Shown here one piece after another: positions 20,914 to 20,990 of a stretch of DNA of 64,000 bases. Numbering within the stretch: position 1 is the first letter of the stretch; each line of letters starts with the position of its first letter. Both the position numbers and the translations under genes were made by a program. The notes under the pieces are model-generated. The model was not told the DNA's origin. It did no database searches and worked only from the letters and a program-made list of their open reading frames with translations. Origin of the DNA: Alphaproteobacteria bacterium (GTDB lineage: Bacteria > Pseudomonadota > Alphaproteobacteria > JAUHZC01); contig JAUHZC010000002.1 of the NCBI GenBank assembly GCA_030425805.1, positions 159,020 through 223,019 of the forward strand, given 5' to 3'.

Positions 20914-20990
20914 GTGGATCGCCGCGCCCTTTCAGGGCTCGCGATGACTGTAAGGAGGTCATTGCGAGGAGCGGAGCATTGCTGCAATCC
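20914..20990. repeat. dispersed intergenic repeat (CGCGATGAC...GTCAYTGCGAGGARCGRAGC family)
   Basis: TGGATCGCCGCGCCCTTTCAGGGCTCGCGATGAC at 20914-20949 is the reverse complement of 1181-1214 with 1 mismatch. The following GTAAGGAGGTCATTGCGAGGAGCGGAGCATTGCTGCAATCC matches the reverse complement of 50185-50245. Confidence 0.55.

Follow-up and report, generated by a model that had tools for sequence, protein, structure and literature searches.

The 64,000-nt stretch of DNA analyzed here (the window) carries a dispersed repeat in three intergenic spacers, one of them upstream of nuoA, raising the question of what kind of element it represents. The first-pass annotation described the repeat as a single composite of 55 to 77 nt and suggested that it could be a miniature repeat, a small RNA or a protein-binding site. 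Our analysis indicated instead that the repeating element is a 33-nt hairpin module, GTCAYYGCGAG-N15-GCRRTCC, arranged in inverted doublets, and that the three intergenic mosaics contain four intact copies of this module, one truncated fifth module and shorter relatives with an ATTCC stem. We consider it likely that these repeats are non-coding dispersed hairpins of the CGTC-tagged REP superfamily, or Ssn-related motifs (SRM), that are tied to an Ssn-type nuclease acting on single-stranded DNA (ssDNA).

A 33-nt module and its relatives in three intergenic mosaics

Copies of the repeat were found at all three of the intergenic loci originally noted. The head of the module, GTCAYYGCGA, occurred five times in the 64-kb window compared to an expected 0.14, a count reached in none of 100 shuffles, and all five occurrences fell within the three repeat loci (Table 1). 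The GTC was invariant across the five heads, with A, A, G, A and T as the preceding base, and the tails were CCA for U1 to U3 and CCG for U4. Scanning the 64 kb with a covariance model trained on 120 family members, including U1 to U4 of the window, identified exactly four full 33-nt units with E values from 4e-12 to 2e-9, the next-best match having an E value of 0.6.

Table 1. Repeat units of the three intergenic mosaics in the window.
Unit	Sequence	Position	Strand	Remarks
ATTCC-stem unit A	ATCATTCCGGGTTTAACCCGGAATCC (- strand reading)	1010-1035	-	CGTC-1/dRS3-like
ATTCC-stem unit B	GAA-ATTCCAGCGCAGGCTGGAAT-CCAG	1058-1084	+	decayed tag
U1	GTCATCGCGAGCCCTGAAAGGGCGTGGCGATCC	1182-1214	+	intact; covariance model 47.7 bits, E = 3.6e-12
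ATTCC-stem unit D	GTCATTCCGGGCCCTGACCCGGAATC	1227-1252	-	8-bp stem; ssDNA fold -7.8 kcal/mol, z = -3.9
Decayed ATTCC-type unit		20881-20905	+	homologue of unit D and partner of U2, from alignment with reverse-complemented locus 1
U2	GTCATCGCGAGCCCTGAAAGGGCGCGGCGATCC	20916-20948	-	intact; covariance model 47.1 bits, E = 5.6e-12
U3	GTCATTGCGAGGAGCGGAGCATTGCTGCAATCC	20958-20990	+	covariance model 38.8 bits, E = 2e-9
U4	GTCACTGCGAGGAACGAAGCGACGCGGCAGTCC	50184-50216	-	covariance model 46.0 bits, E = 1.2e-11
U5	GTCATCGCGA (head alone left)	50225-50246	+	truncated or decayed

The units differ in their state of preservation. U1 and U2 differ by a single base in 33, and U4 is close to the pan-bacterial consensus, with a compensatory C-G pair that preserves its outer stem. 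The inner stem of U3 is degraded, showing two non-standard inner pairs in the covariance model, and U5 gave neither a covariance model match nor a stable ssDNA fold. U2 and U3 form a head-to-head inverted pair with a 9-nt spacer, as do U4 and U5 with an 8-nt spacer, so that locus 3 resembles an inverted copy of locus 2. When locus 3 was reverse-complemented, 44 of 57 positions were identical to locus 2, reproducing the earlier estimate of about 45 of 55. A sequence at approximately 50147 (GTCATCACAA) was considered as a decayed partner of U4 and was dropped, as it had no recognizable tail or stem.

The loci proved to be larger than first described. Locus 1 is a mosaic spanning 1010-1252 that comprises three ATTCC-stem units, an untagged hairpin and U1, and locus 2 extends from approximately 20881. 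Positions 1181-1224 of locus 1 and 20906-20949 of locus 2 were 93% complementary over 44 nt, and this match went on beyond the spacer to include a second, shorter hairpin. Once reverse-complemented, locus 1 aligned with 20884-20949 over 69 columns, covering the ATTCC remnant, the spacer and U2. Within locus 1, unit D and U1 form a tail-to-tail doublet with a 12-nt spacer. Unit A carries ATC in place of the GTC tag and forms a 9-bp stem as ssDNA (-9.0 kcal/mol, z = -4.3). The palindrome of unit B, which forms an 8-bp stem (-8.0 kcal/mol, z = -4.3), differs by one base per arm from that of the Neisseria repeat dRS3 (ATTCCC-N8-GGGAAT). The untagged hairpin at 1128-1148 is a perfect 9-bp stem, ACCCCGGAT-CAA-ATCCGGGGT. 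A 53-aa open reading frame at 1004-1165 (...EIPAQAGIQ...) consists wholly of repeat mosaic and is almost certainly a spurious gene call produced by the hairpin units.

Compensatory changes maintain a two-tier hairpin

Each 33-nt unit consists of an unpaired GTC tag, a 5-bp outer stem (AYYGC/GCRRT), a small internal loop with 2 nt on one side and 3 nt on the other, a 5-bp inner stem, a G-N-A triloop and an unpaired C-C-A tail. We tested this structure, ...(((((..(((((...)))))...))))).., on 120 distinct 33-mers, which were selected by the head core and the tail such that positions 5, 6, 29 and 30 and the entire inner region were free to vary. Among these 33-mers, 87.5% of the cells could pair, compared to 77% in shuffles, and 115 cells were changed on both sides, compared to 22 in shuffles, with none of 500 shuffles reaching 115. 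Sliding the partners by 1-3 columns lowered pairing to 22-54%. Compensatory change was observed at all five inner pairs and at outer pairs 5-30 and 6-29; the inner stem was variable in sequence with its pairing kept. The A4-T31 pair was invariant, and pair 5-30 was T-A in 111 of the 120 units and C-G in U4.

The loops were mostly GAA, GCA or GTA, with C-G closure in 91 of the 120 units, and tandem G.A/A.G occupied pairs 12-22 and 13-21 in about half of the units. In DNA, C-GNA-G triloops and tandem sheared G.A pairs are known from hairpins of very high stability. Predicted ssDNA folds were good for U1 (-8.6 kcal/mol, z = -2.75), for U2 (-9.9 kcal/mol, z = -3.1) and for the ATTCC-stem units, with z scores from -2.75 to -4.3 overall, but not for every unit. 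The fold of U3 was weak (-3.5 kcal/mol, z = 0), and U3, U4 and the family consensus all folded poorly under nearest-neighbour DNA parameters. For U4 and the consensus, these weak predicted folds are explained by an energy model that gives no credit to G.A pairs or triloops.

Gene context and the case for a regulatory or RNA role

The gene context was as previously annotated. Locus 1 lies between a convergent SDR gene (235-972, +) and ORF 1253-2926 (-), and locus 2 between convergent ORF 20505-20867 (+) and a DUF2608 gene (20998-21849, -), while the flanking genes of locus 3, tRNA-Asp (50279-50355, -) and nuoA (49683-50060, -), are co-oriented. Single units and inverted doublets both occur, in gene-poor spacers and immediately behind stop codons. 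For example, ORF 1253-2926 has its stop codon next to the GTC tag of unit D, and the end of U3 is 8 nt short of the stop codon of the DUF2608 gene.

The copy upstream of nuoA, together with the palindromes that are typical of operators, could point to a double-stranded operator for a transcription factor regulating nuo and the other flanking genes. Several observations make such a function extremely unlikely. Convergent genes, between which a promoter would not be expected, flank two of the three loci, and the sole promoter-like match for nuoA, from 50103 to 50075 on the - strand, has its hexamers outside the repeat, leaving the proposed link to the nuo promoter unsupported. Furthermore, the same sequence is found beside unrelated genes in unrelated phyla, and the covariation described above keeps intra-strand pairing rather than a fixed sequence.

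The position of unit D and U3 next to stop codons is in line with a role in RNA, either as 3' stem-loops that end or stabilize convergent transcripts or as a small RNA. Unit A, read on the + strand with its T-rich run, was flagged as terminator-like for the upstream SDR gene, and G.T pairs outnumbered A.C pairs by 27 to 14 in the family, a strand asymmetry that is only suggestive (p = 0.06). Nevertheless, terminator-like T-runs were absent after the 33-nt units of the window, both unit orientations are present at each locus, and a generic terminator would not account for an unpaired GTC tag and C tail that are invariant in more than 12 phyla. Nor does an RNA role explain the bracketing of a nuclease gene described below. 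Tetraloops are typical of stable RNA hairpins, in contrast to the G-N-A triloops that predominate here. Searching Rfam at the gathering threshold returned tRNA-Asp as the sole match and none for the repeats, and a permissive search (E = 10) of 20700-21200 returned nothing better than E = 5. Many repeats of this kind were argued by Di Nocera et al. to be transcribed (PMC3733652). The published enzyme that acts on relatives of the repeat is inactive on RNA (PMC11893778). Taken with the Rfam results and the triloops, this inactivity speaks against the small RNA suggested by the first-pass annotation, and we regard an RNA role as unlikely overall.

We infer that effects on neighbouring genes, such as those of 3' hairpins on convergent transcripts, are secondary to the proposed role as hairpins tied to a nuclease; if nuo or the convergent genes are affected at all, this would be incidental. 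For the window itself the consequence is one of housekeeping, in that the repeats are best annotated neither as nuo regulators nor as small-RNA genes. Hairpin units of this kind can also create spurious open reading frames, as at 1004-1165, and break assemblies. A contig from an independent short-read assembly of the same organism (Logan contig ERR3420974_223529, L001) ends inside U2, at approximately 20925, as expected of a multi-copy repeat.

The module is widespread in bacteria

Scanning viral contigs with the module identified at least 120 stretches, with the consensus GTCATTGCGAGGAGCGAAGCGACGHRGCAATCC, and scanning genomes with the U1/U2 variant GTCAYYGCGAGCCCTGAAAGGGCG identified at least 105 stretches, in agreement with the suggestion of a miniature dispersed repeat. 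The genome stretches listed included Aminicenantes, Chloroflexota, Elusimicrobiota, Bacillota, Actinomycetota, several classes of Pseudomonadota, Planctomycetota, Omnitrophota, Gemmatimonadota, Spirochaetota, Bdellovibrionota, Dependentiae and Patescibacteria. The existence of far more than three copies, with abundant compensatory changes among them, rules out the outcome that would have refuted the earlier argument for a functional or mobile element. The commonest layout among the loci listed was a tail-to-tail doublet whose heads are separated by about 80 nt, and shorter and longer versions with identical ends also occurred. A BLAST search of plasmids with a 96-nt composite gave no match, and literature searches by sequence string returned unrelated primers or nothing.

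Many of the matches outside the window sit at contig ends, and most of the related loci belong to metagenome bins, in which repeats can lead to mis-assembly. Bins of more than 12 phyla, including Patescibacteria and Actinomycetota, contained exact 24-mers of the U1/U2 variant (L122-L226). This distribution could reflect either cross-phylum transfer of an ssn cassette or binning and assembly artefacts, between which the present data do not distinguish.

Relationship to CGTC-tagged REPs and Ssn-related motifs

Comparison with published repeats placed the window units close to two overlapping groups. The CGTC-tagged REPs described by Di Nocera et al. in 2013 have an unpaired CGTC tag, with TGTC and CCTC variants allowed, a stem that begins with an A-T pair followed by a T-A pair, and a CCA tail; they form dimers and mosaics between convergent or unidirectional ORFs, predominate in Alphaproteobacteria and lack a dedicated transposase or associated enzyme (PMC3733652). 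The units of the window and of the wider family share the CGTC or NGTC tag, the A-T then T-A start of the stem and the CCA tail, as well as the arrangement in dimers and mosaics between convergent or unidirectional ORFs. The host, too, fits the group in which CGTC repeats predominate, since it is an alphaproteobacterium as judged by AtpD: after one identical protein, the next-best relatives of the window AtpD were 79-83% identical, and the named ones were nearly all Alphaproteobacteria.

The four published families, CGTC-1 to CGTC-4, have continuous 8-9-bp stems and 4-5-nt loops, and CGTC-1 comprises the Neisseria dRS3 and the Rickettsia RPE-6 repeats, intragenic copies of which encode the peptide VIPAKAGI (PMC3733652). 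The ATTCC-stem units of locus 1 resemble CGTC-1, with continuous stems of 9 (A), 8 (B) and 8 bp (D) and a peptide of the CGTC-1 type; unit B translates as EIPAQAGIQ within the spurious ORF, comparable to the CGTC-1 signature VIPAKAGI (PMC3733652 supplement). In contrast, the 33-nt units have two 5-bp stems around an internal loop and a 3-nt loop, and no listed peptide signature corresponds to them.

The second group comprises the Ssn-related motifs. Chenal et al. (2025) showed that the dRS3 repeat belongs to an oriented hairpin of greater length, the Neisseria Transformation Sequence or NTS (CGTCATTCCCGCGMAVGCGGGAATCYRG), and that genes encoding small GIY-YIG proteins (Ssn, CDD cd10448) are flanked by such motifs (PMC11893778). 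The enzyme SsnA cuts only the forward strand, and only as ssDNA, with no activity on double-stranded DNA or RNA; cutting needs the three bases before the palindrome and binding needs the C after it, and the Ssn system reduces transformation by NTS-bearing DNA (PMC11893778). Like SRM and the NTS, the units studied here form hairpins 20-50 nt long, in which the palindrome is preceded by an oriented unpaired GTC and followed by a C, and they occur in many copies per genome, in inverted pairs that bracket a small single-domain GIY-YIG gene. They differ in that an internal loop breaks up the stem of the 33-nt unit and ATTGC replaces ATTCCC in the outer stem; in addition, the window has no ssn gene, and the 33-nt variant is known from sequence alone. 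Moreover, the published SRM pattern, HGTCWYN(0-2)YYVSBRHN(0-5)WNVSBRGN(0-2)RNCYNB, did not match U1 to U4, the ATTCC-type units of the window or the 33-nt consensus, although it does match the NTS control.

The module brackets genes for small GIY-YIG proteins

The association with a GIY-YIG gene was examined from both directions. Among 105 genome loci picked by the repeat alone, three contained a gene of about 95 aa for a GIY-YIG protein directly bracketed by 33-nt units, in Anaerolineae (L123), Actinomycetota (L148) and Pseudomonadota (L149), and a fourth contained a GIY-YIG fragment. The cleanest layout, that of L149, consisted of a unit, the gene and an inverted unit. The bracketed proteins matched PF01541 with E values from 1e-10 to 1e-17. 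With lengths of 95-104 aa and PF01541 as their sole match, the flanked proteins are classed by Pfam as short GIY-YIG proteins of a single domain.

In the reverse direction, 80 metagenome loci were picked by the protein only, with no DNA motif. A GTCAYYGCGA unit was present within 300 nt of the gene in 49 of these loci and on both sides in 39, and 58 of the 80 had some tagged hairpin on both sides. The density of tagged hairpins was 6.0 per kb near the gene compared to 0.8 per kb beyond 600 nt, and the median distance of the nearest unit from the gene was 40 nt on the upstream side and 21 nt on the downstream side. The bases flanking 93 hairpins, defined by the stem alone in motif-independent loci, were also strongly biased, reading C (68), G (92), T (92) and C (90) before the hairpin and C (91), C (67), A (65) and G (57) after it. 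These flanks correspond to the CGTC tag and CCA tail of the CGTC-tagged REPs (PMC3733652) and to the CGTC...CYRG flanks of the NTS (PMC11893778). By analogy with the relatives of these proteins, which are nucleases specific for ssDNA and for hairpins (PMC11893778), the protein-binding site suggested by the first-pass annotation gains support, though in an unexpected form, that of a hairpin belonging to a family that brackets GIY-YIG genes. No GIY-YIG or ssn-like ORF was present in the 64-kb window, and the window copies may be orphans of a lost nuclease.

A separate observation came from an IMG/VR contig classed as viral (L067), in which an Ssn-like GIY-YIG gene at 2493-2990 is bracketed by a different tagged hairpin, GTCACCCCGGACTTGTTCCGGGGTC, which shows another repeat-nuclease pairing.

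The overall anatomy of the module, a short tagged hairpin occurring in inverted doublets and intergenic mosaics, is also that of the classical REP/BIME and REPIN elements of E. coli and Pseudomonas, hairpin doublets that are copied by a single-copy RAYT, a Y1 HUH enzyme of the IS200/IS605 type acting on ssDNA. The two systems thus share tagged extragenic hairpins in mosaic clusters and an associated single-copy enzyme that recognizes ssDNA hairpins, and two Y1_Tnp genes were present among the fetched loci. However, we judge it very unlikely that the repeats studied here are REPINs of this kind. The REP tag is GTAG and the enzyme Y1 HUH, compared to a GTC tag and a GIY-YIG protein here, and it is the gene for the latter, a different one, that is tightly bracketed. 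The window has no Y1_Tnp ORF; one of the two Y1_Tnp genes (L195) is flanked by inverted repeats of its own, with the nearest units 1.1-1.6 kb away, and the other (L169) has no unit near it. CGTC repeats are reported never to flank tyrosine transposase genes (PMC3733652).

A link to RAYT was rejected on the basis of a phmmer search with E. coli RayT against the ORFs of 226 loci and of the window, in which the two Y1_Tnp were found and neither was flanked by units. The element at 3888-5027 of L195 encodes a 303-aa Y1_Tnp with a C-terminal HTH, carries 40-nt inverted repeats that are 83% complementary, and lies between two hairpin-unit clusters without being bracketed by units.

A model for the dispersed hairpins

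Returning to hairpins tied to an Ssn-type nuclease, we propose that the tagged strand would fold when the DNA becomes single-stranded, as during replication, repair or the uptake of foreign DNA. By analogy with SsnA, a small single-domain GIY-YIG nuclease of the Ssn family would then bind the hairpin and cut beside the tag. Strand-specific cleavage of the 33-nt variant by such an enzyme has indirect support only, from the conservation of the positions on which SsnA binding and cutting depend. The repeats may have multiplied as passengers of an IS-like "repeat-ssn-repeat" unit. The window copies are probably old insertions, because several of them are decayed and because the two best copies, with one difference in 33 bases, have partners that have diverged.

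More tentatively, the 33-nt two-tier hairpin (CGTCATTGCGAGGAGCGAAGCGACGHRGCAATCCAG) may represent an uncatalogued class of SRM that occurs across most bacterial phyla and has its own clade of GIY-YIG nucleases. Since both the published SRM pattern and the four CGTC families miss the 33-nt unit, Ssn-repeat systems would, if this is true, be considerably wider than reported, with a reach that extends to Patescibacteria, Actinomycetota, Bacillota, Chloroflexota and Dependentiae. In that case, the occurrence of near-identical 24-mers in more than 12 phyla would suggest that a selfish "repeat-ssn-repeat" unit has often been transferred between phyla. The repeat is very common in bacteria and little documented, and the connection proposed here ties it to the recently discovered Ssn ssDNA nucleases. 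If this link holds biochemically, the units would offer new, well-defined recognition sites at which ssDNA could be cut specifically, and they could serve as a marker of the horizontal spread of these elements.

Other features of the window

The window contains further repeats of other kinds. A 281-nt direct repeat with 97% identity occurs at 57107-57387 and 58357-58637, where a second copy of the 3' end of gltX (58357-59775, -) lies 1.25 kb downstream and produces a 134-aa ORF (57107-57511, -) that shares the C-terminus of gltX. A 658-aa ORF without a Pfam match (50517-52493, +) includes four to five tandem repeats of 45 nt (15 aa) at 51588-51812. Finally, long Glu/Asp-rich low-complexity stretches at 19558-20105, 23187-23324, 53545-53726, 55921-56080 and 62567-62839, located in several large ORFs that matched no family, dominate the output of the repeat search of the window.
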